Origin: Candidatus Liptonbacteria bacterium
Lineage (GTDB): Bacteria > Patescibacteriota > Minisyncoccia > UBA6257 > 2-01-FULL-56-20
Length of the DNA stretch: 37,857 nucleotides
Reading direction: 5' to 3'
Assembly (NCBI GenBank): GCA_016212635.1
Contig: JACRFR010000045.1
Span: forward strand, 1 to 37,857
Shown here: positions 1 through 37,857 of the stretch, piece after piece
Position numbering within the stretch: position 1 is the stretch's first letter
Layout: every line of letters starts with the position of its first letter
Position numbers and translations under genes: made by a program
The notes under the pieces: generated by a model
Told to the model about the DNA's origin: nothing
What the model saw: only the letters and a program-made list of their open reading frames with translations
Database searches by the model: none

Positions 1-480
1 GTCGTAGCCTTGGTGGGCCATTACCCCGCCAACTAGCTGATCGGGCCTAGGCCGATCTCGGAGCGTCTTGCGACTTTAATCGTACCTCGCTGCTGCAAGG
101 CACCGCTGATTTACGCAGATTATTACGCTGATTTACGCAGATGAATTTTTGAATCCATCCGCGGCTATCCGCGTGTATTTTCTATCTGCGTTTATCCGCG
201 GTGCTTCACAATAGTGAAGCACGATACCATCGGGAATTACCTCACCTTTCGATGAGCTATGCCCGACTCCGAGGTACGTACCAGGGTGTTACTAACTCGT
301 TCGCCGCTGCGCGCGCACAGCGCGCTCATCAGCGAATTACAAATTTATTACGAATTTACGAATTCGCAAATTCGGTTTTTATTCGTTATTCGTTGATAGC
401 GTGCTGCGCACGCACCGCTCGACTTGCATGCCTTATCCACGCCGCCAGCGTTCATCCTGGACCAGGATCAAATCCTCTGA
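1..480 (-). rRNA. rrs: 16S rRNA, 5' ~480 nt (gene continues past window start), with two large hairpin expansions
   Basis: The reverse complement of 440-478 reads AGAGGATTTGATCCTGGTCCAGGATGAACGCTGGCGGCGTG, the universal 16S 5' end. The reverse complement of 1-38 reads AGCTAGTTGGCGGGGTAATGGCCCACCAAGGCTACGAC (E. coli ~240-290). The span is ~480 nt versus ~290 nt in E. coli. Confidence 0.9.
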
Positions 481-604
481 AAAAGAAACAGTTTGGGACA
501 ACTGCAAAACTCTCTGCTCGCCCCGCTAAGCGGGGCTTTCCATGTGCGATTATCAAGCTGCAATCGAGACTAGAGAAAAATAGCGCGATTTCAGTCGCGG
601 GGTA

Positions 605-1393: not shown

Positions 1394-1538
1394 GTTATTT
1401 AGAGTTATTAGAAATATACCCTTTTCGACATCAGGTTAAGTATAGCATAAACGACCCGGCAACACCTGCACACACGGCAATCCATCTGCGAGTTTCACGA
1501 CGATCGTTTTCAAACTCGCAATTAAGTAATGGGGCGAA

Positions 1539-1567
1539 TTGAAAGCCAGCGGATATTTCTCTATACT
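1539..1567 (+). promoter_or_regulatory. Candidate promoter for prfA (TTGAAA-17-TATACT), located inside the longest ORF
   Basis: TTGAAA at 1539-1544 and TATACT at 1562-1567. This places the transcription start near 1574, so translation most likely begins at ATG 1586 or 1601. Confidence 0.5.
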
Positions 1568-1585
1568 ACAAGCACTTTAAAAATT

Positions 1586-2326
1586 ATGAAGCGTATCATC
1601 ATGGAAATTCGAGCTGGGACTGGCGGAGACGAAGCTGGGCTTTTCGCCGGAGATCTGACGCGCATGTACCAGCGCTATGCCGCCAAGCGAGGCTGGGCGT
1701 TCAATATCCTGGATTCTAACGAGTCCTCCTTGAATGGCTATAAATCGCTAGTGGCCGAAATCTCCGCCGGAGGCGGACCCTCCTCCGGAGGGCGCGGTCC
1801 CTATGATGATTTGAAACAAGAGTCGGGCGTGCACCGGGTACAACGTATCCCTAAAACCGAAAAAGCTGGGCGGGTACATACTTCCACCGCGACCGTGGCG
1901 GTCCTGCCGATGGTGGAGCCCAAGCAAGTGGAAATTCGAGACAGCGATCTGGAAGTCAGCTTCTCCCGTGCCGGCGGCCCGGGCGGGCAAAACGTGAACA
2001 AGATCGAGTCGGCGGTCCGAATCCTGCATAAGCCTACCGGTATCGTTATCTCCTGCCGAGTGGAGCGTTCCCAGTATGCCAACCGCGAGCGGGCATTGGA
2101 GATCCTGCGCGCAAAACTTTTTGAGGCGCAGCAAACCAGAGACACGGGCTCGGTCGGCGACCTGCGCCGGGAGCAGATCGGCTCCGCCGACCGTTCGGAA
2201 AAGATCCGGACCTACAACTTCCCGGACGACCGAATTACTGACCACCGTATCGGTAAAAAGTGGCACAACATCGAAAAGATCATGGAGGGCGAGCTGGATC
2301 CGATAATTAAGGCATTTTCGCAGTAG
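1586..2326 (+). CDS. prfA: Peptide chain release factor 1 lacking N-terminal domain 1 (~246 aa)
   Basis: IRAGTGGDEAGLFA, RIPKTE (P-x-T tripeptide), GGPGGQNVNK (GGQ) and RTYNFPDDRITDHRI are present. The ORF track gives 1529..2326; the start was trimmed because of the internal promoter. There is no coding room upstream for domain 1. Confidence 0.85.
   Translation: MKRIIMEIRAGTGGDEAGLFAGDLTRMYQRYAAKRGWAFNILDSNESSLNGYKSLVAEISAGGGPSSGGRGPYDDLKQESGVHRVQRIPKTEKAGRVHTSTATVAVLPMVEPKQVEIRDSDLEVSFSRAGGPGGQNVNKIESAVRILHKPTGIVISCRVERSQYANRERALEILRAKLFEAQQTRDTGSVGDLRREQIGSADRSEKIRTYNFPDDRITDHRIGKKWHNIEKIMEGELDPIIKAFSQ
1761..1790. repeat. In-frame CTCCGG/CCGGAG palindrome cluster inside prfA
   Basis: tctccgccggaggcggaccctcctccggag encodes the extra segment SAGGGPSSGG, between the conserved EIS and the HRVQR block. 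Confidence 0.5.
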
Positions 2327-2392: not shown

Positions 2393-2929
2393 TCAAGTCG
2401 CGCTTAGAATTTTTAGTTTGATTTCCTTACCGCCGATCAGGAGCGGTGCGACATCCTCTGCTTTCTTGCCTAAGAGCGCCCGGCCCAGCGGCGCTTTGGG
2501 AGTTATCACCAGAACGTTCTGGCCATCAACTTCCGCCACCGTGCCGCCACTCCCATTTAGCACCAGGTGCCAAGCCGTTTTACCCTCGCGCTCCACGGAA
2601 ACCAGCGAACCCGGCTGGATTGTTTCGCCAGCCGGAGCATCTCCATACTCTCCCCTTGGCCGATCGGCCAAGGGGAGATTATGAGTTTGGCCTGAAGCCT
2701 GCACCTGTAATCTCACCAATTCCCTAATGGCCAGCTCCTTGTCCTGGATTAGCGTTACGAGTTCCCCGGCGCGCACCTGCATCTGGGCGCGGGTGGTGTC
2801 GCTATGGGATTCCATGGCACCGGGTGCCTCTTGCGCCGCCCGCCGGGTGTCTTCCAAATTCCGCTTCAACTCCGCCTCTTCCTCACGAATCTTTTGCAGT
2901 ATCGCTTTGAGTACCAATTGCTTATTCAT
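2393..2929 (-). CDS. GreA/GreB-family protein (Gre-like C-terminal domain, atypical N-terminal coiled coil)
   Basis: The C-terminus ITPKAPLGRALLGKKAEDV is Gre-like. The N-terminus is a charged coiled coil. The gene ends with TGA. Confidence 0.6.
   Translation of the reverse strand: MNKQLVLKAILQKIREEEAELKRNLEDTRRAAQEAPGAMESHSDTTRAQMQVRAGELVTLIQDKELAIRELVRLQVQASGQTHNLPLADRPRGEYGDAPAGETIQPGSLVSVEREGKTAWHLVLNGSGGTVAEVDGQNVLVITPKAPLGRALLGKKAEDVAPLLIGGKEIKLKILSAT
2650..2677. repeat. 28-bp perfect palindrome embedded in frame in the Gre-like gene
   Basis: ctccccttggccgatcggccaaggggag is self-complementary and encodes part of NLPLADRPRGEYG. Confidence 0.7.
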
Positions 2930-3484: not shown

Positions 3485-4546
3485 CTACTCCAACACCTCC
3501 GCCACTTGTCGAATGAAACTCACCACCACCGCGGGCGGCAGAAGACTGTAAGACGGCACACCCTCATCGTCCTTTACCACCCACGGCTCTTCCTTGACCG
3601 TAATTTGCCCCGTGCTTTCGTTTATCTCATAAGCGTAGGCGGGTGTAATCTCATAATCGTCAACATACTCCAGGGCCCGGTCGGCCGGCAGGGCGTTGCG
3701 TAAATACACCTTGGGCAAACCCTGGAGCTCCAAAAGGCGGTCGAAGATCTGGCCGTCCACCTCCAACCTGGCACGGATAGGTTCAATGCCCAAGCGATCG
3801 CCTTCTTTGGGCACCATGCGCGCTCCGTTGCACCCCGTCGCGTTACACTTCAGATAAAACTCTTTTTGTTCGGCATCATAACCAACTTCCTTGGTGGCCA
3901 AAAGTCGCGTATTGCGCGGCGTTTTACAGATAGGGCAAATTACTCGGTATTTGATGCGCTCGTCGATTATCGCATGCGGCAAGCTGATAAACACCAGAAA
4001 GTCGGGATCATTGCGATAACCGATCAGATCCCGCAAGTGCAGGGCGTAGCTGATCTGATCCAAGCCCCGCGGAAAGCCATCAATGAACACTGCCTGTCGC
4101 GGCCGCCGGCTAATTTCGTATTTGAGCAATGCCACGATCAGTTCCGATGATATCAGTTTTTCCTGACTGCGACCTTCGATCAAGTCAAAAGTCTCTTCTA
4201 CCGTGTGAAAACCGCGGTAGTTTTTATTCAGGAAGTCGGAGAGTTCCTGTTTGCGCGCGGGATTTGCCAAACTGTCGTGAATATCTCGGACAATGTCCCC
4301 CACTGCCACGTGGCCAATGTGTTCCGCGCCCACCGCCTCCATAAATAATTTGGAATAAGTCCCTTTGCCGGAATTTTTCTTACCGATTAAATAACCCACG
4401 AAGGTCTGGTCTGATAAATGCTTCCTAATCTTAGCTATAGCCTCTCCGCACTTGGCGTCAAAGTAGACACGCCGATCCGCCGGATCGTTTAAATTAAAGC
4501 GCTGGGTGACTCCCGCAGTTTTAGTTTTGTGAATCGGGAAATCCAT
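3485..4546 (-). CDS. Adenylate kinase-family protein with N- and C-terminal extensions
   Basis: P-loop GKKNSGKGT, IDGFPRG, and a LID-like RVICPICKTPRN...CNATGCNG are present. It is 353 aa versus ~215 aa for canonical Adk. Confidence 0.6.
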   Translation of the reverse strand: MDFPIHKTKTAGVTQRFNLNDPADRRVYFDAKCGEAIAKIRKHLSDQTFVGYLIGKKNSGKGTYSKLFMEAVGAEHIGHVAVGDIVRDIHDSLANPARKQELSDFLNKNYRGFHTVEETFDLIEGRSQEKLISSELIVALLKYEISRRPRQAVFIDGFPRGLDQISYALHLRDLIGYRNDPDFLVFISLPHAIIDERIKYRVICPICKTPRNTRLLATKEVGYDAEQKEFYLKCNATGCNGARMVPKEGDRLGIEPIRARLEVDGQIFDRLLELQGLPKVYLRNALPADRALEYVDDYEITPAYAYEINESTGQITVKEEPWVVKDDEGVPSYSLLPPAVVVSFIRQVAEVLE

Positions 4547-5979
4547 TATTTTTTGCCTTTAACGGTCTTTTCGACTATTTTTAAATGCAATTCTTCCAGC
4601 TGTTGCGGATCTACGGGACAAGGCGCGTCCATCACCGCGGTCTGGCCGCCGGAAGTCATCGGGAAGGCGATCACTTCGCGCAGCGACTCTTCGCCCGCCA
4701 AAAGCATGACATGCCGATCCAGGCCCAGAGCAATGCCGCCATGCGGGGGCGCGCCATATGAAAACGCTTCCAGCATGTGCCCCACGCTGGCTTCGATCTG
4801 TTCCTCGGTGTAACCCATGATGCGCAGGGTGGCGCGCAAAACTTCCGGGTCGTGGGCCCGGATACTGCCGCCGCCGACTTCATAGCCGTTACAAACCAGG
4901 TCATACTGGGTGGTCAGAATATCGCCGATATTCTTCCCGGCCAAATGATCCGTTAAATATTCCGGCATGGGCTGGCTGAACGGATTGTGGGTGAAGGTCC
5001 AGCCGCTCTTGCCGTCCCGAATCTCTGCCACATCCGCCCGATCCACTTTTTTGAAGAACGGGAAGTTGATCACCCAAGCAAAGGCCAACACTCCCTCCTT
5101 CTTTTCCTCTTCGGTCCGCAGGTCGAACTTATCCGCCTTGTACTTCTTCATCGCTTCGGCGTAAGCCACTACCGGGAACGGGTTTTGTTTTATTTTCCCG
5201 CCCACCTGCGTTACCGCTTGACGAACGACCTTTTCCACCATGGCCATAACATCCTGCTGCTCCACGAAACTCATCTCGATATCCACTTGGGTATGTTCGA
5301 AACCGCGGTCCGCTCGCAAATCTTCATCGCGGATACAGCGGGCGAATTGGAAATAGCGCTCCACGCCGGCAATCATTAGGAGCTGTTTATACTGCTGGGG
5401 CGATTGCGGTAAAGCGTAAAATTTCCCGGGCTGCATGCGCGACGGAACGATAAAATCCCGGGCGCCTTCTTTGGTTGCCTTGGTCAGCATGGGCGTCTCC
5501 ACTTCCGTAAAGCAGTTATCATAAAGGGCATCCCGGACGGCCCGAGCATATTTAGAGCGTAGCTGTAGAATCTTATTCAAGCGCGGGCGGCGTAGATCCA
5601 CGTAGCGATACCTTAAACGCACACTTTCGTCGATTTCATAGCCATCGCCATCGATCGGCAGGGGTAGAGGCTCGCTCGGGTTTAGGACGGTCAGGGCCTT
5701 GATCTCCACCTCGAAATTACCCGTGGGGAGATCCGGGTTCTCCATGCCCTTGGGCCGGCGCTTAACTTCGCCCTTAACGCGCACCGCCCATTCCGGCCGA
5801 ATTTTGCCCGCTTCTTGATAGAAGCTTTTCTCCGGCGTGATTACGCATTGCGCCACGCCGGAACGGTCACGCAAATCAAAGAAAATCAGTTTGCCATGAT
5901 CCCGCCGGGCATGGATCCAGCCCGCAAGCTCTGCCTCCTGACCAACTAGGCCAGTGATTTCATTAATGAGTGTGCGCAT
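4546..5979 (-). CDS. aspS: Aspartyl-tRNA synthetase, bacterial type but without the GAD insertion domain
   Basis: FFDLRDRSG, ALPQSPQQYKQLLM, FEHTQVDIEMSF and GGGSIR motifs are present. It is 477 aa. Its stop overlaps the downstream start as TAATG at 4544-4548. Confidence 0.9.
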   Translation of the reverse strand: MRTLINEITGLVGQEAELAGWIHARRDHGKLIFFDLRDRSGVAQCVITPEKSFYQEAGKIRPEWAVRVKGEVKRRPKGMENPDLPTGNFEVEIKALTVLNPSEPLPLPIDGDGYEIDESVRLRYRYVDLRRPRLNKILQLRSKYARAVRDALYDNCFTEVETPMLTKATKEGARDFIVPSRMQPGKFYALPQSPQQYKQLLMIAGVERYFQFARCIRDEDLRADRGFEHTQVDIEMSFVEQQDVMAMVEKVVRQAVTQVGGKIKQNPFPVVAYAEAMKKYKADKFDLRTEEEKKEGVLAFAWVINFPFFKKVDRADVAEIRDGKSGWTFTHNPFSQPMPEYLTDHLAGKNIGDILTTQYDLVCNGYEVGGGSIRAHDPEVLRATLRIMGYTEEQIEASVGHMLEAFSYGAPPHGGIALGLDRHVMLLAGEESLREVIAFPMTSGGQTAVMDAPCPVDPQQLEELHLKIVEKTVKGKK

Positions 5980-6615: not shown

Positions 6616-6724
6616 TTGAATTACGAAACTCCATCCTCCCCCTTGTTTAAGGGGGAGCCAGAGGGGGTCCTGGATTCTAGACCCCGCCTGACCTCGGGCA
6701 CAAAGTTACCAGTTTCGTAATTCC
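6616..6724. mobile_element. MITE-like element with ~13-17-bp terminal inverted repeats (GAATTACGAAACT)
   Basis: gaattacgaaact at 6618-6630 is the reverse complement of agtttcgtaattc at 6711-6723. There is an internal CCTCCCCC...GGGGGAG hairpin. Confidence 0.45.
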
Positions 6725-7673: not shown

Positions 7674-8242
7674 TTAACCGGCAACCCATAAGCCGGATTC
7701 TGTCCCCTCTCGCCTACGGCGAGAACGCTGATTCACGCCGATTTCTGCGCCGATTCACGCTAATGGGCTAGTCCCCATCTGCACTTATCTGGGTGTTTTA
7801 TCCGCGTTAATCCGCGTCTAGTCTGCGCTTATCCGCGATCTTGTAGTAGACAAGAGAGTGATGATCATTTATCTGGGCCCTCGATTACTCTCGGGCTCAA
7901 GCGAGCACTCCGCGCGCGCAGCGCGCTCATCAGCGAATTGCAAATGAAAACCGAATTTACGAATTCGTATATTCGTAACCGATTCGTTATTCGTTGATAA
8001 CGTGCTGCGCACGCGACACGACTCTTGCGCCCAGTAAGGGTTTAGCCGTTTCACTTTCGCCTTACGGCGAAATTATTCCCGAAGGAATTCCCTCGGCTTT
8101 CGCCTCGGGACGTCTCTGTTCGCACCTCTAAGCTTGCGCTCGACGGCTGTTAGCCGCTACCTTTGGTCCCGCTAAGCGGGACCGGGTGTCCGGACTTTCC
8201 TATCCCGCCGAGGCGGGATCGATCATCTAGGTTGCCAGCTGC
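7674..8242 (-). ncRNA. rnpB: RNase P RNA (bacterial type A-like core) with ~170-200 nt of extra helices
   Basis: In RNA sense, GGAAAGTCCGG is the reverse complement of 8190-8200, GCTTGAGCCC of 7893-7902, and ACAGAATCCGGCTTAT of 7688-7703. P1 can form between CTGGCAACC (5') and GGTTGCCGG (3'). Confidence 0.85.
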
Positions 8243-8298: not shown

Positions 8299-8346
8299 TG
8301 TTCGAGGCCCGACCACGAACAGTAGTGTTCGAGGTCGGGCCTCGAT
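8299..8346. repeat. REP-like hairpin, GAGGTCGGGCC family (copy a)
   Basis: ttcgaggcccgacc ... ggtcgggcctcga inverted repeat, intergenic. Confidence 0.7.
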
Positions 8347-8355
8347 ACATGATAA

Positions 8356-9168
8356 TTAAAATTTAGCCTTCCCCGTCAACTCGATGATTCTCTTAAACTC
8401 CTTCGGCCTCAAACTGGCCGCACCGACCAGAACACCGTCAATTTCGGGGTGGTTTAAATAACTTTGTGCATTTTTGACGTTGACCGAACCGCCGTAGAGG
8501 ACGGGGGTGGTGAGTAGAGAGTAGCGAGTAGAGAGTAGAGATTTAATGGAACGGATCATTTCTACTACATCCGCAGGTTTTTCCAAACCTCCCCCTTCCC
8601 CCTCCTTAGCAAGGAGGGGCTTGGGGAGGTTGGTCGATATAGCCCAGACGGGCTCGTAGGCGAGGATTAAGCGAGTAGCGGGTGGGGAGTAGGGAGTAGA
8701 GTTGATACCGGAGAGACAGGCACGAAGTTGAGAGGCGACAAACTTCTTCGAGGCAGCAATCCCCTGCCTGCGAATTGCGAATGTTTCGCCGACACAGAGA
8801 ATCACCTTGAGGCCGGCCCGGAGCGCGGCTTGAACTTTTTTCGCTACCATCTCGTCCGTCTCCCCCATCGCTCGCCGCTCGGAGTGACCTAGAATGACGT
8901 ATTTTGCGCCAAGCTTTTTAAGCATGGCCGGAGAAACTTCGCCGGTGAATGGTCCCGATGCTACCTCTGGCCCGCAGTTTTGGGCCCCTAGGGAGAAGCG
9001 GGCAGAGAGTAGTGAGTAGAGAGTAGAGGAAAGAAATGGGAACGGTGGGCAAATAACCACTTTGGCGTGCTTGTTCTTATCCGCCGCCACTCCTGCCGCG
9101 CGGGCCAGCTTTTGGGCCTCGGCGTAAGTAGTCGGATTCATCTTCCAGTTAGCGATAATTAGTTTCAT
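8356..9168 (-). CDS. tpiA: Triosephosphate isomerase
   Basis: ANWKMN, GHSERR, YEPVWAI, YGGSV and GAASL motifs are all intact. Confidence 0.92.
   Translation of the reverse strand: MKLIIANWKMNPTTYAEAQKLARAAGVAADKNKHAKVVICPPFPFLSSTLYSLLSARFSLGAQNCGPEVASGPFTGEVSPAMLKKLGAKYVILGHSERRAMGETDEMVAKKVQAALRAGLKVILCVGETFAIRRQGIAASKKFVASQLRACLSGINSTPYSPPATRLILAYEPVWAISTNLPKPLLAKEGEGGGLEKPADVVEMIRSIKSLLSTRYSLLTTPVLYGGSVNVKNAQSYLNHPEIDGVLVGAASLRPKEFKRIIELTGKAKF
8586..8630. repeat. Nested 45-bp palindrome embedded in frame in tpiA
   Basis: aacctcccc..cccctccttagcaaggagggg..ggggaggtt encodes NLPKPLLAKEGEGGGLEKP, ~10 aa longer than the usual loop after the YEPVWAI motif. Confidence 0.7.
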
Positions 9169-18246: not shown

Positions 18247-18252
18247 GGAAAT

Positions 18253-18337
18253 AGTGAGTGGCGAGTAGCGAGTAGCGTGGCGAGTAGCGAGGACCCATCT
18301 TCCATCTTTCCCTACTCTCTACTCCCTACTCTCTACT
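18253..18337. repeat. Long imperfect hairpin built from GAGTAG / CTACTC hexamer repeats, abutting the mraZ start codon
   Basis: gtgagtggcgagtagcgagtagcgtggcgagtagcgagg opposes ccctactctctactccctactctctac. Confidence 0.7.
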
Positions 18338-18749: not shown

Positions 18750-18792
18750 TTCCGAGGTCGGGCCTCTAAAATTCCCCGAGGTCCGACCTCTC
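18750..18792. repeat. REP-like hairpin, GAGGTCGGGCC family (copy b)
   Basis: ccgaggtcgggcctc taaaattcccc gaggtccgacctc. Confidence 0.7.
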
Positions 18793-18944
18793 ACATTCAA
18801 TGCCCAACGCTGGGACCAGCGATTTCACTTGGACGTCATTCCGGCCCTCGAGCCGGAATCTACGTCTTGCAAACACGCAAAATATGGATTCGGAAGCAAG
18901 CTCAGAACGACACAAAAACAGTGAGGCGCGCAGGTCCTATTGAA

Positions 18945-22083: not shown

Positions 22084-22123
22084 CCGAGGTCGGGCCTTGG
22101 GGAATTCTTAAGGCCCGACCTCG
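22084..22123. repeat. REP-like hairpin, GAGGTCGGGCC family (copy c, inverted loop)
   Basis: ccgaggtcgggcctt ggggaattctt aaggcccgacctcg. Confidence 0.7.
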
Positions 22124-22188: not shown

Positions 22189-22318
22189 GCGCTGTTCGAA
22201 AACATTGATTCCCCCGCTTGCCGAGTGTCATCCCGGGCTTGACCCGGGATCCAGTGACTAAGGAAACCTGGATTCCGGCTTTCGCCGGAATGACAAACCT
22301 GGGGTTTTCGAACAGCGC
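22189..22318. mobile_element. MITE family 1, copy 1 (15-bp TIR GCGCTGTTCGAAAAC; 9-bp TSD GGACGGCGT)
   Basis: The TIRs at 22189-22203 and 22304-22318 are perfect reverse complements. GGACGGCGT is present at 22179-22187 and 22320-22328. Confidence 0.8.
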
Positions 22319-23467: not shown

Positions 23468-23520
23468 TTTATAATTATCAACGAATTGCGAACTGGTTGC
23501 GAATTTTCGAATTCAATTCT

Positions 23521-23592
23521 TCGAGGTCGGGCCTCAAAAATCCCCGACCGTGCCCGCCGTAGCTTTTCAGCGTAGGCGGGAGGCCCGACCTC
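23521..23592. repeat. REP-like hairpin, GAGGTCGGGCC family (copy d, with nested second hairpin) in the rplJ-rplL spacer
   Basis: tcgaggtcgggcctc ... gcccgccgtagc ttttca gcgtaggcggg ... gaggcccgacctc. Confidence 0.7.
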
Positions 23593-23650
23593 TAACATTC
23601 AGATTCGTAGATTCGCAACAGATTCTTTATTCGTTGATGTTAATTATTAC

Positions 23651-24145: not shown

Positions 24146-24215
24146 GGGATTCTCTGCGAATTACAAATTTGTACTAATATACGAATGGGACCTATATTTT
24201 TCGTATATTCGTATG

Positions 24216-24292
24216 TTTTCGTATTTCGTAGCTAATTTGCGACCTTTTCGTATTTCGTAGCTAATTTGCGACCTTTTCGTATTTCGTAGCTA
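24216..24292. repeat. 29-bp tandem repeat, 2.65 copies
   Basis: ttttcgtatttcgtagctaatttgcgacc occurs at 24216-24244 and 24245-24273, with a partial third copy to 24292. Confidence 0.9.
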
Positions 24293-24296
24293 AAAA

Positions 24297-24505
24297 TAAA
24301 AAACCCCGCTTCCGGCGGGGCTGCGCACTGTCATTCGAATGTGCCCATTCGTTTCCTCCGGAGGAGGATCCGCCCTAGGCGGAAAGGCAATTCGCATACA
24401 GCGCACTCCTCGGTGGGTCTCATACCCTTTCGGGTAGCCCAGTCCGACCTTGTGTCGGACCCCCGATTTCCGGCTTTCTGGAACATCAGGGCGGTCTTCG
24501 GAAGC
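24297..24505 (-). ncRNA. Candidate ~210-nt structured leader/attenuator RNA upstream of rplJ (possible L10-leader analogue)
   Basis: It is bounded by a consensus-like promoter and an intrinsic terminator (CCCCGC-CGGAA-GCGGGG + T6). It contains several stable hairpins. The overlapping ORFs look spurious. Confidence 0.4.
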
Positions 24506-24511
24506 AAAAAT

Positions 24512-24540
24512 ATACTACTTCTGCCTGGTACGGTTGTCAA
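24512..24540 (-). promoter_or_regulatory. Candidate promoter (TTGACA-17-TAGTAT) for the rplJ leader
   Basis: -35 is the reverse complement of 24535-24540 and -10 the reverse complement of 24512-24517. Confidence 0.5.
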
Positions 24541-24549
24541 ATTGAGGGG

Positions 24550-24670
24550 GCGCTGTTCGGAAACGTCAAAAAGTTATTCCCTGAGCCCGTCGAAGGGTAG
24601 CTTTTTGGCGGGTACATGGCATGGCCCTCGACAAGCTCGGGCAATAAAATCGGTGGTTTCCGAACAGCGC
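24550..24670. mobile_element. MITE family 1, copy 2 (TIR GCGCTGTTCGGAAAC; 9-bp TSD AATTGAGGG)
   Basis: TIRs lie at 24550-24564 and 24656-24670. AATTGAGGG is present at 24540-24548 and 24672-24680. The internal sequence differs from copies 1 and 3. Confidence 0.75.
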
Positions 24671-24738
24671 CAATTGAGGGATACGCTTGAGGGATACGCT
24701 TGTCCGGTATTTACCCGGATGGTGGCACCTCAAGCGGA

Positions 24739-24788
24739 GTTCCCAAATCACACGATTGTCCGACCGGACAATCGTGTGATTTGGGAAC
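24739..24788. repeat. 50-bp near-perfect palindrome (24-bp arms)
   Basis: gttcccaaatcacacgattgtccg ac cggacaatcgtgtgatttgggaac. Confidence 0.85.
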
Positions 24789-24915
24789 AGAAACAAAACG
24801 GCAAATTCTTGCACCATTTCTAATTGACCACCACTCTTAAGTCGACACGGATAAGATGCGGGGCCTGAAGCTGTGCGACGGTGCGAGGTTATCGCTGATT
24901 TTTGCAACCAGCTGA

Positions 24916-30803: not shown

Positions 30804-30934
30804 GCGCTGTTCGAAAACGACCTTTTCTCTTATCCCTCTCGGTCATCCCGGGCTTGACCCGGGATCCAGGATCCTGAAAAACCTGGATTCCCGCTTTCGC
30901 GGGAATGACAACCCCCCTGGTTTTCGAACAGCGC
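30804..30934. mobile_element. MITE family 1, copy 3 (TIR GCGCTGTTCGAAAAC; 9-bp TSD CTGATTTCA), inserted in the 3' end of a Nudix gene
   Basis: TIRs lie at 30804-30818 and 30920-30934. CTGATTTCA is present at 30795-30803 and 30937-30945. The core is nearly identical to copy 1. Confidence 0.8.
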
Positions 30935-31590: not shown

Positions 31591-31731
31591 TCGTTCCTCG
31601 CGTATCCGACATTTTCCATTTTATCCTTGAGCCGTCGGCCCTCCTTCGCTAAAGCTTCGGCGGGGCAAGTCGGAATTTCGCTATCCCCTTTTCACTACTC
31701 TCTACTCGCCACTCACTACTCACTTTCCTTG

Positions 31732-32159: not shown

Positions 32160-32402
32160 TTGGGAACAGCGAGGTCGCACATGTATCAACCCTATGATCC
32201 ATATGGGTACGGTCGCTCGACCGTACCCGGCCCCGGCAAGAAGCATCGCCGGGGCAATCAGTGCGAGCAGACCCGGACCTACTACCGGTCGGACACCGGT
32301 TGGTCGGTCCAGGTCAAGGGCGCGCGGAAGATCTCCCGCGCCCGGGCGGCGGTGGAGCTCGGTCTGCGAGCCGACGAGCTCCACCTGCTTCAAGGTGGAT
32401 GA
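32160..32402 (+). CDS. Doubtful small ORF (80 aa) in a GC-rich hairpin-dense block
   Basis: It is the least repeat-like of three overlapping ORFs and is followed by the hairpin GCGGCGGCC-N8-GGCCGCCGC. The region may instead be non-coding. Confidence 0.25.
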   Translation: MGTARSHMYQPYDPYGYGRSTVPGPGKKHRRGNQCEQTRTYYRSDTGWSVQVKGARKISRARAAVELGLRADELHLLQGG

Positions 32403-32534
32403 GGCAACGAGCGGCGGCCAGACCAATGGCCGCCGCTTAAATCCCTCCCCCTTCTCGCCTCGCCGAAGCCTACGGCGTAGCGCAGGTCGGGTACTCCCTT
32501 TATCAAGGGAGAATTCCGACAAAACCCGTGAGCC

Positions 32535-32951: not shown

Positions 32952-32977
32952 TTGTCCCTACTCCCTACTCCCCATCC

Positions 32978-33068: not shown

Positions 33069-33185
33069 CACCTCCCCTCGCCCCTCCTTAGAACAGGAGG
33101 GGGACTACACCTCCCCTCACCCCTCCTTAGAACAGGAGGGGGACTACACCTCCCCTCGCCCCTCCTTGGAAAAGGAGGGGAAATG
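33069..33185. repeat. 39-bp tandem repeat x3, each unit containing a CCCCTCCT-N7-GGAGGGG hairpin
   Basis: cacctcccctcgcccctccttagaacaggagggggacta is repeated at 33069, 33108 and 33147 (the last unit is diverged). Confidence 0.9.
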
Positions 33186-33262
33186 AACTGTCCCTAGGTT
33201 AGCAAAAACGGCCCGAAAATCCAATGAGTTCGGCGCAAAATACTGGGAAACCATTAATTTTT

Positions 33263-33303
33263 AGAGGTCGGGCCTTAGAAAATCTCCCAAGGCCCGACCT
33301 CGG
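33263..33303. repeat. REP-like hairpin, GAGGTCGGGCC family (copy e)
   Basis: agaggtcgggcctt agaaaatctccc aaggcccgacctcgg. Confidence 0.7.
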
Positions 33304-33400: not shown

Positions 33401-36400
33401 ATGACCAAGTTCGTCCATCTCCACACTCACTCCCACTACTCCCTCCTGGACGGCCTGTCCCAGATTCCGGACCTGGTAGCCCGAGTCAAGGAGCTGGGCA
33501 TGGACATGCTGGCCGTGACCGACCACGGCGTTTTGTACGGCGCCGTGGAGTTTTACAAGACCGCTCGCAAGGCGGGCATCAAGCCCATTCTGGGCATGGA
33601 AACTTACGTGGCGCCGAAAAGCCGCCTGGCACGAGACTCGAACGAACGGTACTACCACTTGATACTCCTCGCGGAAAACGATGTCGGCTGGCACAACCTG
33701 ATCCAACTCTCCACCAAGGCGCACCTGGAAGGTTTTTACTACAAGCCGCGCGTGGACAAGGAACTTCTGCGGGAACACCACGCGGGGCTGATCGCAACCT
33801 CCGCTTGCCTGGGCGGGGAATTGTCCCAACTGCTGCTCCAAGGAGAATACGACACGGCCAAGCGGGTCGCGCTGGAGTATCGGGACATTTTCGGCGCGGG
33901 CAACTACTTCCTGGAGCACGGCGAGCATCCGCACATTCCGGACGCGGTTAAAGTTAAGCCTCTTTTGATCCAGCTGGCCCGCGAGACCGGTATCCCTCTG
34001 GTCGCCGCCCAGGATAGCCACTACCTGCGTCCGGAAGACGGCGAATATCACGACGTTCTGCTCGCGGTTCAAACCAGTAATCGCCTGGCCGACGACGACC
34101 GCTTAAGCATGAAGGCGGATAATTTCGCGATCCTTTCGCCGGACGAAATGGCGGCCAAGTACGCCGATCTGCCGGAGGCGATCGAAAACACAGTTCGTAT
34201 CGGTGAGCGCTGTAATGTCACCTTGGAACTGGACAAGGTCATCCTACCCGACTTCCCTAAGCCGGAGGGCGAGACCGCAGATCAGTACTTGCGGGAACTG
34301 GTGGAGACACGCCTTCCGGGTCGCTTTCCGGAACGGGCAGTCGCACCGGAGGTCCGGGAGCGGCTGGAGTTCGAGTTGGGCGTGATCCAAAAGACCGGCT
34401 ACGCCGACTACTTCTTGATCGTCCAAGACCTGATCAATTGGGCCAAAACCCACGGGATTGCGGTCGGCCCGGGCCGCGGTTCGGCGGCGGGCAGTCTGGT
34501 TTCTTATGTGCTCGGCATCACCGGGGTCAATCCCCTAACCTACGATCTGCTGTTCGAACGATTCCTGAATCCCGACCGCATTCAAATGCCGGACATCGAC
34601 ATGGACTTCGCGGACAAGCGCCGGGACGAAGTGATCGCTTACGTGCGGCAAAAGTACGGCTCGGACCGGGTGGCGCAAATCATCACTTTCGGGACCATGG
34701 CGGCCCGGGCCGCTATTCGGGATGCCGGCCGGGCGATGGGTCTACCCTACAACTTGTGTGACCAAGTGGCCAAACTCATTCCGTTCAATATGAATCTCGC
34801 GGAAGCGATCAAAAAGGTGCCGGAGCTGGCCGAGTTCTATCAAAACCCGGAAACCAAGAAGTTGTTGGACACCGCGCGGCATCTGGAAGGAGTCGCGCGC
34901 CACGCCTCCGTGCACGCCTGTGGCATTGTGATCTCTAAGGAGCCGTTAGTGAATATTGTGCCCCTGCAACTCGCACCGCAAGACAAGGACAGTATCGTCA
35001 CCCAGTTGGAGATGCATTCCATTGAGGACCTGGGCCTCTTGAAGATGGACTTTCTGGGCTTACGCAACCTGACCACCATCGAGGAAACTGTCCGGCTGGT
35101 GCGAGAACTGCACGGCGAAACTATCGATATCGCGAATATCCCACTGAATGATCCGGCTACCTTTACTTTGCTCCAACGGGCGGATACCAGCGGCGTGTTC
35201 CAATTCGAGTGTTTATCCGGCGATACAATGATTTCGAACACCACCCTGAAAAAACTTTATGAACGAAGAAACAGGAAAACCCTGGAATCAGTATATGTGG
35301 ACGAGGGCAAGGTTCATCGAAATACGATCCTGGGAATCGCGAAAAGCGGTAAAAAAGATGTTTATACGTTGATCGCGGATAATAACTGGTTTATCAAGGC
35401 TACCGCCGAGCACAGTTTTCTAACGGAAAACGGGTGGAAAAAATTAAAAAATATAAGGCCGGGCGAAAAAGTTTTGCTAAGGACCAAGGCCAGGCATCTG
35501 GTCTACAATACATGCCTGACTTGCAGAAAACAGATCGATGGTCAAAAAAATGGCAAAAGCAGATTTTGTTATGCCTGTTCGGCGGCGCATTTCAAAAATC
35601 CAAGCAAAGATATTTCACGAACAAAGATGCGGGAGGCGCGCAGAAATTTCTTTCGAAACGGCGGACGCACCTGGAATCTGGGAGTTACCACCGAAAATAA
35701 TGAGGTTTGGCGGGAGACGGCTCGTAAAATTTCCCAAGCTCTGACTGGAGTGTCGATCGAGGACCGGTGGGGGGCGGAAAGAGCCACGGAGATCAAGCGG
35801 AGATTCTCGGAAAGATTCCGGGGCGCGGGCAATCCCATGTTCGGCCGCCGCTCGCCGCACAGGAAGGGCGGCATCCGACCGGATTTGGGGCACTATGTCC
35901 GATCCAACTGGGAAGCTGACTTTGCCAGGATCCTTAATTACTTTAAAACGGGGTATCAATACGAACCGAAAACTTTCCGGCTCACGAGAGGCGACGGCAG
36001 CGCTGTTTCATATACACCGGATTTTTACGTTCCGACCACGAACACTTTCTACGAGATCAAAGGCTGGCTTCACGAATTGGACCAGGAAAAAATGGACCTG
36101 TTCCAGACACAGTATCCGGAATACAACTTTGTGCTGGTAAATAAAACTAAGTTCGCGGAGCTGGCACTGCAATATCGGGACTTAGTGGCCTGGGAGTGTC
36201 CCAAAATACCCGAGAAGAATTTCGAGTTCGTGAAAGTCCGCGAAGTAAAATATTCCGGGATCGAAGAAACATATGACATCGCCATGCAGGCTCCGGGAAA
36301 CAACTTCGTTGCCAACGGATTTGTGGTTCATAACAGCAGTGGTATGCGACGTTATATGAAAGATATCCATCCCACCGAGCTGGAAGATCTGGTAGCGCTG

Positions 36401-37857
36401 GTCGCTCTGTTCCGCCCGGGCCCGATGGAACTGATCCCGTCGTACATCAAACGCAAAAACGGCGAAGAAAAAATTGCCTACCTCCACCCCAAACTGGAAC
36501 CGATCCTCAAAAATACTTATGGCATCGGCGTCTACCAGGAACAGATGATGCGGATCGCCCGCGACTTGGCGGGCTACACCCTGTCGGAAGCCGACACCTT
36601 GCGCAAAGCGATTGGCAAAAAGATAAAATCGCTTTTGGACGAGCAGGAGGAAAAGCTGGTCGCCGGCATGACTAAAAACGGCATCGCTCCGAAAGCCGCC
36701 AAAGCCATCTGGGAACTCTTCCCGCCATTCGCGCGCTATGGGTTCAATCGCTGCGTAACCGGCGATACTCAAATTAATGACCCGGTTACCGGACAATTAG
36801 TTGCGGTGGAGGAGCTGTTCCGGGATAAGACGCGGCTGGCGCAAACTTATTCGATTGATCAGGGCGGCAAAGTTTTCACCAACGGCATCACCGACATTCT
36901 GGATAATGGACCGAAAGACGTTTATTCGGTCAAGACTAAGAGCGGCCGGAAGATCAAGGCCACCGCGAATCATCCCTTGCTCACGCCTCAAGGGTGGCGG
37001 AAACTGGAGGATATTGAGGCCGGCACCCGAATTGCAGTACCGCGAATCCTGCCCGAGCCGGCACAACCGCTTGCCGCCCAGCATCACCGCGCCGCCTTGC
37101 TGGGCTACCTTTTAGCCGAAGGCAATTTGTGCCATCCGCACGGCTTTTATTTCTATTCCGCCTCCGAAGCGGAAATAACGGACTATATCCAAAATCTGGA
37201 AAAATTCGACAACACCGTTGCCGTGATTGATCGCTCCAAACCTGCGGCCTCGGTTTACGCAAAGCGCAAAGATGTTAAGCGGATCTCGGCGGCAGTCGCC
37301 TGGGTAGAATCTCTGGGCATGAAAAATAAAACCGCTACCCAAAAGACCATTCCGGATTGGGCCTGCCGGCTCGCCAACGAGGATTTGGCGGTGCTGATCG
37401 CGAAAATGTTCCAGGGAGACGGCTGCCTGCACCTGCGCGGCGTTAATCCCCAGATATACTACGCCACTTCCTCGCACCGCTTGGCGCAAGGACTGCAGCA
37501 TTTGTTGCTGCGCTTCGGTATTTTGTCCACGATCCACCAAAAGGGATTTAAATATCGGGGCACGATCAAGCCCGGCTACACGGTATCAATCGGCCGCCAT
37601 GACAATATCGGCAAATTCATTGCCAATTTTATGCAACATTTTGTCGGTCAGAAACAGGCGGTTGCCCGAGAAATATTAAGGGGGCACCCGATCTTGAATC
37701 AACTACCTCGCAGCAAGCTGACGAGGTATGAACTGAAAACTACCCAAGTGGTGTCATTCCGGCCCCCGCATCAAGTGCGGGGCGAGCTTGGAGCCGCCTG
37801 TCCGCCTCCGGCGGAGAATCCAGGTGGGAATACTGAATGGATCCCGGATATTTTTCA
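33401..37857 (+). CDS. dnaE: DNA polymerase III alpha subunit, 5' part (open to window end), interrupted by two inteins
   Basis: Manual translation in the frame of ATG 33401 gives MTKFVHLHTHSHYSLLDG (PHP), GRGSAAGSLVSYVLGIT, PDIDMDF, KMDFLGLRNLT, GVFQFE, then after intein 1 SSGMRRY...LFRPGPM...YGFNR. The ORF track omits it because it has no stop in the window. Confidence 0.92.
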   Translation, partial: MTKFVHLHTHSHYSLLDGLSQIPDLVARVKELGMDMLAVTDHGVLYGAVEFYKTARKAGIKPILGMETYVAPKSRLARDSNERYYHLILLAENDVGWHNLIQLSTKAHLEGFYYKPRVDKELLREHHAGLIATSACLGGELSQLLLQGEYDTAKRVALEYRDIFGAGNYFLEHGEHPHIPDAVKVKPLLIQLARETGIPLVAAQDSHYLRPEDGEYHDVLLAVQTSNRLADDDRLSMKADNFAILSPDEMAAKYADLPEAIENTVRIGERCNVTLELDKVILPDFPKPEGETADQYLRELVETRLPGRFPERAVAPEVRERLEFELGVIQKTGYADYFLIVQDLINWAKTHGIAVGPGRGSAAGSLVSYVLGITGVNPLTYDLLFERFLNPDRIQMPDIDMDFADKRRDEVIAYVRQKYGSDRVAQIITFGTMAARAAIRDAGRAMGLPYNLCDQVAKLIPFNMNLAEAIKKVPELAEFYQNPETKKLLDTARHLEGVARHASVHACGIVISKEPLVNIVPLQLAPQDKDSIVTQLEMHSIEDLGLLKMDFLGLRNLTTIEETVRLVRELHGETIDIANIPLNDPATFTLLQRADTSGVFQFECLSGDTMISNTTLKKLYERRNRKTLESVYVDEGKVHRNTILGIAKSGKKDVYTLIADNNWFIKATAEHSFLTENGWKKLKNIRPGEKVLLRTKARHLVYNTCLTCRKQIDGQKNGKSRFCYACSAAHFKNPSKDISRTKMREARRNFFRNGGRTWNLGVTTENNEVWRETARKISQALTGVSIEDRWGAERATEIKRRFSERFRGAGNPMFGRRSPHRKGGIRPDLGHYVRSNWEADFARILNYFKTGYQYEPKTFRLTRGDGSAVSYTPDFYVPTTNTFYEIKGWLHELDQEKMDLFQTQYPEYNFVLVNKTKFAELALQYRDLVAWECPKIPEKNFEFVKVREVKYSGIEETYDIAMQAPGNNFVANGFVVHNSSGMRRYMKDIHPTELEDLVALVALFRPGPMELIPSYIKRKNGEEKIAYLHPKLEPILKNTYGIGVYQEQMMRIARDLAGYTLSEADTLRKAIGKKIKSLLDEQEEKLVAGMTKNGIAPKAAKAIWELFPPFARYGFNRCVTGDTQINDPVTGQLVAVEELFRDKTRLAQTYSIDQGGKVFTNGITDILDNGPKDVYSVKTKSGRKIKATANHPLLTPQGWRKLEDIEAGTRIAVPRILPEPAQPLAAQHHRAALLGYLLAEGNLCHPHGFYFYSASEAEITDYIQNLEKFDNTVAVIDRSKPAASVYAKRKDVKRISAAVAWVESLGMKNKTATQKTIPDWACRLANEDLAVLIAKMFQGDGCLHLRGVNPQIYYATSSHRLAQGLQHLLLRFGILSTIHQKGFKYRGTIKPGYTVSIGRHDNIGKFIANFMQHFVGQKQAVAREILRGHPILNQLPRSKLTRYELKTTQVVSFRPPHQVRGELGAACPPPAENPGGNTEWIPDIF
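35210..36334 (+). mobile_element. Intein 1 (375 aa) in dnaE with a non-LAGLIDADG, PD-(D/E)xK-like endonuclease insert
   Basis: It starts CLSGDTM directly after GVFQFE, has block B ATAEHSF, and ends NGFVVHN followed by S. The insert contains CLTCRK...CYAC, NPMFGR-type repeats and SNWEADF...YTPDFYV...FYEIKG. Confidence 0.8.
36752..37857 (+). mobile_element. Intein 2 in dnaE (LAGLIDADG type), incomplete at window end
   Basis: It starts CVTGDTQI after YGFNR (splitting the conserved YGFNKSH motif). It has ATANHPL, and LAGLIDADG-like LLGYLLAEGNL and LIAKMFQGDGCL. Confidence 0.8.

Follow-up and report, generated by a model that had tools for sequence, protein, structure and literature searches.

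We analysed a contig of 37.9 kb (here called the window) from a CPR (candidate phyla radiation)/Patescibacteria bacterium of Parcubacteria type, the sole contig of this genome examined, and characterized a nested palindrome inside its triosephosphate isomerase (TIM) gene tpiA. Genes were identified with Pfam (proteins), ARAGORN and Rfam; coding sequence for proteins makes up about 76% of the contig, RNA genes 4% and the rest 20%. The initial annotation of this DNA had proposed that palindromes of an intergenic type are inserted in three genes, tpiA, prfA and a Gre-like gene. The significance of RNA folds was expressed as z against 200 dinucleotide shuffles, and by this measure the palindromes in tpiA and in the Gre-like gene were real, whereas the one in prfA was not (z -1.4). 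The features of the tpiA locus are the following:

8356-9168, minus strand: tpiA, 270 amino acids, TIM family (Pfam E value 1.6e-67)
8586-8631, both strands: nested 46-bp palindrome in tpiA, a two-sided intrastrand triplex motif
Within the palindrome-encoded segment: TpiA insert peptide EGEGGGLEKPADVVEMIR
tpiA unit: candidate single-stranded triplex-forming sequence 5'-CCCCTCCTTAGCAAGGAGGGGCTTGGGGAGGTT-3'

The palindrome, first noted as 45 bp long, comprises 46 bp and reads AACCTCCCC(c)tt(c)CCCCTCCTT agc AAGGAGGGG ctt GGGGAGGTT on the plus strand. All nine positions are paired in the inner stem (8599-8607/8611-8619, CCCCTCCTT agc AAGGAGGGG) and likewise in the outer stem (8586-8594/8623-8631, AACCTCCCC / GGGGAGGTT), which has one bulged C at 8595. 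The coding-strand RNA folds with -37.4 kcal/mol, compared to -22.9 ± 3.0 kcal/mol for the shuffled sequences (z -4.9; 0 of 200 shuffles were as good), and a sliding 50-nt scan of the contig identified this palindrome as the strongest hairpin within any confirmed gene.

The element has the anatomy of an intrastrand triplex motif. Such a unit consists of a homopyrimidine arm, a 2-6-nt loop, a complementary homopurine arm, a spacer of 2-5 nt (usually 3 nt) and, as a third arm, a G-rich mirror image of the purine arm, with G opposite G and A or T opposite A; according to the literature and the sequence rules, the single-stranded DNA of the unit may fold back twice to form a purine-motif triple helix. 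In tpiA, the plus-strand unit is made of CCCCTCCTT (8599-8607), agc, AAGGAGGGG (8611-8619), ctt and GGGGAGGTT (8623-8631). Its hairpin part (8599-8619) is paired at 9/9 positions, and ctt GGGGAGGTT (8620-8631) provides allowed triads at nine of nine. The other strand also follows the third-arm rule, with a one-base bulge, and here the third arm is supplied by the mirror block AACCTCCCC (8586-8594).

The palindrome is translated in frame (...YEPVWAISTN-LPKPLLAKEGEGGGLE-KPADVV...), and the insertion corresponds approximately to residues 181-196, where lid loop 6 meets helix 6, just after the YEPVWAI motif. We aligned the protein with 24 Parcubacteria homologues and E. coli TpiA (26 sequences displayed, including the window protein). 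Compared with E. coli, the segment following YEPVWAI has 13 additional amino acids, and compared with the Parcubacteria form seen most often (ISTNK-GAKPDSPE) it has 10, while the other sequences range from 0 to +7 at this loop and none of those displayed exceeds +7. The catalytic residues N7, K9, H95 and E172 as well as YGGS and GAASL are kept, and the phosphate-binding loops are conserved. The proposed lengthening of the loop by ~10 amino acids with intact catalytic motifs was thus correct, the actual difference being 10-13 residues. The closest relatives in the collection of 5.8 billion proteins that we used for homologue searches were 50-53% identical and belonged to Candidatus Liptonbacteria, Minisyncoccia and 'Patescibacteria group' assemblies. 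An AlphaFold2 model (45 sequences) had a mean pLDDT of 90.1 and was weak only at 181-200 (<50 at 190-193); compared with solved TIM structures, it reached a target-normalised TM-score of up to 0.91 (4y96_A).

Other Parcubacteria tpiA genes contain different in-frame GC-rich palindromes in other loops. One of them has a 24-residue insert that folds with -28.6 kcal/mol in a locus of 40% G+C, and the first 15 nt of another insert, KLSAGGGSAFGGK, are identical to the hairpin in the window gene for RF1 (prfA, see below). The triplex-motif finder was negative with both of these inserts.

The tpiA gene also harbors three in-frame heptanucleotide arrays, (CTACTCT)n, detected with Tandem Repeats Finder at 8512-8541, 8673-8699 and 9004-9028; the encoded peptides are SLLSTRYSLLT, INSTPYSPP and LSSTLYSLLS. 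Elsewhere in the window, heptamer arrays are present at 18309-18337, 18252-18291, 31692-31724 and 32955-32972. At these three structural sites, other Parcubacteria TpiA proteins possess heptamer-coded peptides of their own that are specific to their lineages (for example SPFTIHHSP, KPITYNLKP and LAPKAYVLAPK), and the arrays were verified in the DNA of two loci (L124: CACTACT, TCTACTC; L122: TTCTAAA). Since the TpiA site before YGGS has the same length as in E. coli, the repeat seems to overwrite native sequence rather than to be inserted. A literature search for heptanucleotide repeats in Patescibacteria returned nothing relevant. These arrays may be stranger than the palindrome.

The tpiA copy is not the only triplex motif in the window. 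With a finder that requires 8-nt arms, a perfect hairpin and not more than one third-arm mismatch, we detected six units, compared to none in 100 first-order Markov resamples:

955-999, both strands: two-sided unit with a variant stem, flanked by rpmE (L31) and a response-regulator gene, which converge; CCTCCCCTT agc AAGGGGAGG tta GGTGGGGT
6636-6669, plus strand: third stem variant, 3' of an MgtC-family gene; CTCCCCCTT gttt AAGGGGGAG cca GAGGGGGT
8587-8631, both strands: the tpiA unit
33070-33180, minus strand: three tandem 39-nt units between tRNA-Thr and dnaE; CCCCTCCT gttcta AGGAGGGG cga GGGGAGGT

The motif is therefore multi-copy and over-represented, with six units in 37.9 kb of a single contig. 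The five units outside tpiA obey the third-arm rule with 0-1 mismatch, and in the unit 955-999 the A/T position of the third arm has moved in accordance with the mirror rule. Within the window, the tandem units at 33070-33180 are most closely related to the tpiA copy. The core of the tpiA palindrome had been equated with the intergenic hairpins; this identity holds exactly for the units at 33069-33185 (CCCCTCCT..AGGAGGGG together with the ACCTCCCC block), whereas the hairpin at 967-987 (CCTCCCCTT agc AAGGGGAGG) is only similar, having the same loop and a shifted T. The 8-mers CCCTCCTT/AAGGAGGG and ACCTCCCC/GGGGAGGT are among the most over-represented words of the contig, and their paired occurrences fall at 956-998, 8586-8631 and 33069-33185. 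Read on either strand, the tpiA copy can be aligned column by column to the intergenic units and to elements of five other CPR genomes. It does not share the intergenic location reported for E. coli, a property that lies outside the structural definition of the motif. Rfam had no family covering the element, whether the window was searched at permissive E-values or eight motif-rich loci at the gathering score. A Shine-Dalgarno/anti-Shine-Dalgarno reading of AAGGAGG/CCTCC was considered and set aside: there is no conserved start codon downstream, and the motif is frequent in Bacteroidota, which make little use of Shine-Dalgarno pairing.

To follow the motif in other genomes, we scanned one genome per species (GTDB) for CCCCTCCTT-N2-6-AAGGAGGGG and obtained at least 120 loci in many phyla. 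The matches listed include Bacteroidota isolates (Pontibacter, Hymenobacter), Nitrospirota, Acidobacteriota, Thiomargarita, cyanobacteria, Dehalococcoidia and Planctomycetota, as well as 13 CPR genomes. About 60% of the listed hairpins have a conserved block on one side only, AACC[A/T]CCCC plus 2-4 nt, or its complement GGGG[T/A]GGTT on the opposite side; in the flanks of the listed genome hairpins, no conservation was seen further out than this block. The pattern is the same in viral contigs from IMG/VR, in which the block accompanies 78 of 109 hairpins. The block is the mirror image of the neighbouring arm. The alternation of A and T at its single non-G position and its conserved terminal TT are accounted for by the geometry of purine-motif triplexes, in which G is placed on G-C and A or T on A-T. 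We then took advantage of stems with a different position of the T within the C-run, collecting such hairpins from viral contigs and using the un-mirrored arm as a control. The hairpins with the mirrored third arm were:

CCCCTCCTT/AAGGAGGGG stem, genome contigs: 91 of 151 (control 3)
CCCCTCCTT/AAGGAGGGG stem, viral contigs: 69 of 96 (control 3)
CCTCCCCTT stem, viral contigs: 49 of 73 (control 2)
CTCCCCCTT stem, viral contigs: 17 of 42 (control 1)

Indeed, the third arm covaries with the stem, and it does so as a mirror and not as a direct repeat.

Full motifs are also located inside long open reading frames (ORFs) of four other CPR genomes, which Pfam assigns to RarA/MgsA, Lgt, a beta-CASP metallo-beta-lactamase RNase and TsaE; where the motif sits, the matches to these domains are stretched or split. 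All three frames are used: PLLxKEG in window TpiA and Lgt, PSLxRRG in RarA, the RNase and TsaE, and PPxxxGGG in TsaE. On average, 4.37 of the six frames of a unit are free of stops (155 elements). Since three frames are in use and the sequence is poor in stops, we argue for tolerance rather than selection of the peptide. In a cyanobacterial metagenome-assembled genome (MAG; OY969811.1, L107:4276-7720), the ORF of a restriction-modification methyltransferase contains five in-frame copies. Some of them flank an inserted segment that resembles a DUF559/Vsr-type endonuclease domain (identified by eye), which hints that triplex motifs can flank larger in-frame insertions.

Intergenic copies lie mostly 3' of genes or between convergent genes, and 6 of 106 are situated between divergent genes. 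Two CPR MAG loci (L066:102-136 and L079:7155-7246) carry the stem CCCTCTCC / GGAGAGGG / GGGTGAGG, which resembles E. coli BoxC; near-identical stem variants are therefore common to Enterobacteria and CPR. BLAST with a consensus 39-mer gave no matches in annotated phages and two weak ones in plasmids, a search in which the low-complexity filter probably masks the motif. Nothing relevant was found when the literature was searched for palindromes lying in frame in CPR or for the motif strings themselves.

The anatomy of the motif corresponds to that of a repeat class successively named BoxC, PIT (potential intrastrand triplex) elements and TM (Holder et al. 2015, PMC4666352, citing Maher and colleagues). 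According to that study, the E. coli TM consensus is CCCTCNCCC N3-6 GGGNGAGGG N3 GGGNGAGGG, 3610 copies were counted in 262 proteobacterial genomes, and triplex motifs rich in G/C abound in Microcystis, Anabaena and Nostoc. The E. coli TMs form a triplex in vitro, which NMR favoured over a quadruplex, and no stable triplex in vivo. They block polymerase in vitro, have no promoter or terminator activity, show more local rearrangement nearby, are exclusively intergenic and have no link to mobile elements (PMC4666352). Like the window units, BoxC/PIT/TM elements are composed of a C-rich arm, a loop, a G-rich arm, a 3-nt loop and a mirrored G-rich arm (A/T opposite A), measure ~32-37 nt, and are G/C-rich, dispersed in multiple copies, sometimes arranged as inverted pairs or tandem arrays, and mostly intergenic. 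The window family differs from the E. coli elements in its stem, which is CCCCTCCTT/AAGGAGGGG with T-shifted variants instead of CCCTCNCCC, and in being frequent in IMG/VR viral contigs, whereas the E. coli elements reportedly have no phage or plasmid link. In addition, it occurs in frame within tpiA and other CPR housekeeping genes, whereas the E. coli elements are reported to be always intergenic, and the tpiA copy has a third arm on both sides.

The initial annotation had likened the palindromes to Rickettsia palindromic elements (RPE). This holds for the behaviour: RPE are in-frame palindromes in unrelated housekeeping genes, apparently tolerated in surface regions (PMC10969869), and the tpiA copy likewise sits in frame in a housekeeping gene at a structurally tolerant site. 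It does not hold for the anatomy. The RPE, of ~100-150 bp and ~150 bp as first described, form ten Rickettsia families, each with a conserved encoded peptide, whereas the triplex unit has 30-39 nt (46 when two-sided), crosses phyla, carries a mirror third arm, is read in three frames and has no conserved peptide. The intragenic GTAG/CGTC-tagged repetitive extragenic palindromes (REPs) are 20-40-bp hairpins with a one-sided, conserved, unpaired extension (Di Nocera et al. 2013, PMC3733652). These REPs are found mostly 3' of genes or between convergent genes, and a minority is inside ORFs for known proteins in several phyla, where they add ~10-30 residues (PMC3733652). The triplex motif shares the hairpin with its one-sided extension, the positional bias and the minority in ORFs; its extension, however, is a 9-nt mirror of the stem and not a tetranucleotide. 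The triplex motif is not peculiar to this lineage: it is present in many phyla and in phage contigs and lies in frame in housekeeping genes of other CPR, and in-frame REPs are known outside Rickettsia (PMC3733652).

Membership in the tagged REPs was rejected, since the tag appeared in 3 of 155 spacers of oriented elements, and no RAYT (Y1 transposase) was detected among the window ORFs scanned against Pfam. The element is not a miniature inverted-repeat transposable element either, a class with terminal inverted repeats of 15-30 bp, a length of 70-300 bp and a target-site duplication: it has 46 nt and no direct repeat at its flanks, which only lengthen the palindrome by 2-3 bp. We conclude that the repeat family itself is known and that its in-frame presence in housekeeping genes, notably of CPR, is the new part.

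The other two genes named in the initial annotation are the Gre-like gene and prfA. Their features are:

2393-2929, minus strand: Gre-like ORF, 178 amino acids, with a marginal match to the Pfam GreA/GreB C-terminal domain (27.2 bits)
2644-2683, both strands: palindrome in the Gre-like gene, 40 bp with one mismatch, perfect over 30 bp at 2649-2678, centre GATC
2645-2710, minus strand: insertion of 21-22 residues (74-95) in the linker that joins the coiled coil of the Gre-like protein to its C-terminal domain
1529-2326, plus strand: prfA, coding for RF1, 265 amino acids
1763-1792, plus strand: two adjacent 6-bp hairpins in prfA, TCCGCC gga GGCGGA and CCCTCC tcc GGAGGG

The perfect palindrome of the Gre-like gene, at 30 bp, is slightly larger than the 28 bp first noted. 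It folds with -33.9 kcal/mol (z -5.95) and encodes (H)NLPLADRPRGE(Y) in the middle of the insertion. Residues 74-95 are missing from all four homologues (153-157 amino acids), the only ones in the protein collection. In the AlphaFold2 model (pLDDT 82.9), values below 50 are restricted to residues 81-100. The alignments thus confirmed that both the TpiA and the Gre-like segments are missing from the homologues found, and both inserts map to the sole low-confidence stretches of otherwise confident models. The Gre-like palindrome has an 8-bp stem, CTCCCCTT/AAGGGGAG, in common with the 955-999 unit, and the triplex-motif finder detected no third arm at it. It is at best a relative of the family; with lower confidence than for tpiA, we regard it as most likely derived from this stock of hairpins but devoid of a third arm, or as a template-switch product.

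In prfA, the insertion proposed as ~9 amino acids is real and comprises eight residues, AGGGPSSG (80-87; 1766-1789), relative to Thermotoga maritima RF1 and the two closest relatives (69% and 60% identical). Its palindrome, however, was no better than expected from composition (z -1.41; an equally good fold in 18 of 200 shuffles), and the finder recognized no triplex motif in the hairpin cluster. A 7-amino-acid insert is present at the same beta-hairpin loop in two distant RF1s, an outcome that the initial annotation had itself named as refuting its claim. The RF1 insert is an ordinary low-complexity loop expansion coding for Gly, Ser and Pro. RF1 also lacks the entire N-terminal domain 1, and its Pfam PCRF match begins at profile position 100; since the closest relatives are equally short (232 and 242 amino acids), the short RF1 is a lineage trait and not a truncation artefact.

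The third-strongest coding hairpin (4828-4877, -32 kcal/mol), in the gene for aspartyl-tRNA synthetase (AspRS), was considered as a fourth case and rejected, as it lies in the conserved GGGSIR motif and represents no insertion. The AspRS itself (4546-5979, minus strand) is of the bacterial type and lacks the ~120-residue insertion domain of all matched bacterial AspRS structures; its alignment to these structures is split at approximately residue 291/297.

Further repeats and insertions occur on the contig. The 5' end of the 16S rRNA (1-483, minus strand) has insertions of 87 and 126 nt at two helix tips, and the RNase P RNA (7674-8238, minus strand) has 565 nt compared to 367 nt of the model, its score of 91 bits being just below the gathering score of 100. 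An AT-rich palindromic family (ATCAGCGAATT...AATTCGTTGAT) is found in the 16S V1 insert (328-397), in the RNase P insert (7929-7998) and between rplL and rplJ (23477-23638), with a weaker relative at 24149-24236. The dnaE gene (DNA polymerase III alpha; 33404-37855, plus strand) runs off the contig end and contains two inteins, the first at approximately residues 613-977 and the second from ~1133, with a LAGLIDADG homing-endonuclease domain. Repeat insertions were rejected as the cause of the unusual DnaE length, for which the two inteins account. A second GC-rich hairpin family, GAGGCCCGACCTC / GAGGTCGGGCCTC, with stems of 13-20 bp, occupies five loci, all intergenic, and a third family consists of the paired hairpins ATCCCGGG cttga CCCGGGAT and ATTCC(G/C)GC tttc GC(C/G)GGAAT:

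8302-8345, 18752-18798, 22085-22123, 23520-23595 and 33262-33301: GAGGCCCGACCTC / GAGGTCGGGCCTC family
22230-22291, 30845-30906, 18838-18859 and 37757-37790: ATCCCGGG/CCCGGGAT family

The ATCCCGGG/CCCGGGAT copy at 30845-30906 forms the C-terminal ~25 residues of a NUDIX protein (...SRESGNPGFSGSWIPGQARDD...), and another is in frame near the end of a dnaE intein. Two apparently non-coding stretches, 32200-32450 and 24334-24790, are dense in hairpins of high stability; among them are four strong stems at 32205-32437 and, at 24739-24788, a perfect stem of 24 bp (-40.8 kcal/mol). Neither stretch matched Rfam at the gathering score; structured RNAs that escaped annotation, or additional repeats, may account for them.

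To summarize the tpiA case, we regard the palindrome as probably a copy of the dispersed intrastrand triplex repeat (BoxC/PIT/TM) that entered the gene in frame and has been tolerated as a passenger. In this genome, the family resides mainly between genes, and one two-sided copy would have entered tpiA. Because its arms are rich in C/T and in G/A, ~4.4 of 6 frames are stop-free; with a net length that is a multiple of three and a tolerant surface loop, the gene would stay open and the insert would be translated as a disordered loop rich in Pro, Leu, Lys, Glu and Gly. The peptide would thus be a tolerated passenger and not a selected feature. In the mRNA, the element should simply be a strong hairpin, since purine-motif triplexes do not form in RNA. 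The repeat probably spreads at the level of single-stranded DNA, be it by polymerase stalling and template switching or by means of a hairpin-recognising enzyme.

An unlikely though arguable alternative is a local origin without any mobile repeat, in which slippage or intrastrand template switching perfects quasi-palindromes in Gly/Pro/Glu-rich loops and the likeness of the elements reflects shared composition. Composition alone does explain the RF1 cluster, the Gre palindrome (perfect, with no loop and no third arm, and single in the window) is what an inverted duplication would give, the length of the tpiA loop varies among relatives, and the strong AspRS hairpin lies in a conserved motif and clearly involves no insertion. 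However, the tpiA element equals the intergenic elements and those of other genomes position by position, including the spacer length and the mirror arm; such three-part units appeared in 0 of 100 resamples, and in-frame copies are present in unrelated genes of further CPR genomes. We consider it improbable that the element is a selected nucleic-acid signal with the peptide as a by-product, be it a pause site for replication or transcription, a translation pause for TIM folding, or a site for RNase III or mRNA stability: from one genome to the next, the motif is found in other host genes, at other positions and in other reading frames, and none of the aligned TpiA homologues has the motif at this site. 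Such a signal would fit the perfection of both 9-bp tpiA stems and of the 30 bp in the Gre-like gene although they are coding, as well as the skew of intergenic copies towards gene 3' ends and the block that PIT elements impose on DNA polymerase in vitro (PMC4666352); the same elements, though, are without promoter or terminator activity, and purine-motif triplexes are not formed in RNA (PMC4666352).

It is very improbable that the segment is absent from the mature protein because RNA processing removes it or translation bypasses it. Some yeast mitochondrial genes contain mobile GC-rich inserts that offer a comparison, the hairpin at the site is very stable, and the large helix-tip insertions in the 16S and RNase P RNAs of the contig indicate tolerance of intervening sequence. 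The segment is nevertheless in frame, free of stops and of frame-keeping length, so that nothing forces bypassing, and neither a take-off/landing codon pair nor a stop codon was seen. That the element marks an assembly artefact or a chimeric join at a repeat is hardly credible: short repeats can mis-join metagenomic contigs, but the reading frame continues unbroken across the element, as do the TIM motifs on either side and the fold, and similar in-frame copies exist in independent assemblies of other CPR genomes.

Several points weigh against the tolerated triplex repeat. Since the closest TpiA is only 53% identical, the insertion is deduced from the alignment and not from a presence/absence polymorphism, and part of the extra length could predate the motif, because this loop is variable in Parcubacteria (0 to +7). 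The contig contains no transposase or other mobilising gene, and the E. coli study found TMs neither associated with mobile elements nor forming a stable triplex in vivo (PMC4666352). A neutral passenger should decay; the two perfect tpiA stems would therefore imply a recent arrival, or selection or gene conversion that upholds the pairing. The harmlessness of the insert is an assumption, since it adjoins the catalytic lid at the C-terminal hinge of loop 6 and not an inert face of the barrel. Finally, the full motif is present in only one of the three genes named in the initial annotation.

More speculatively, and with rather more doubt than confidence, one may regard triplex motifs as actively spreading, pan-bacterial, phage-borne ultra-small elements that enter coding sequence much more often than one would expect from the E. 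coli study. If this is true, the motifs would, in CPR above all, repeatedly give rise to new surface loops of essential proteins, folded single-stranded DNA would possibly trigger template switching at replication forks, and tpiA would contain a triplex-forming repeat beside the catalytic lid whose perfect stems reflect recent or ongoing activity. The BoxC/PIT/TM elements have been known for ~30 years, and their function and mode of spread are without an accepted answer. The in-frame motifs in tpiA, rarA, lgt, tsaE and an RNase gene of different CPR lineages extend the notion of selfish DNA inside proteins past Rickettsia and the tagged REPs to a structurally distinct class of repeats. They also provide natural test cases of essential enzymes that tolerate inserts, here at the hinge of the TIM lid, and the strings PLLxKEGxGxV, PSLxRRG and PPxxxGGG can serve as an annotation flag for such inserts. 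The finding further bears on the often 'expanded' look of CPR proteins and stable RNAs; several repeat families are present in the proteins, the 16S rRNA and the RNase P RNA of this contig.

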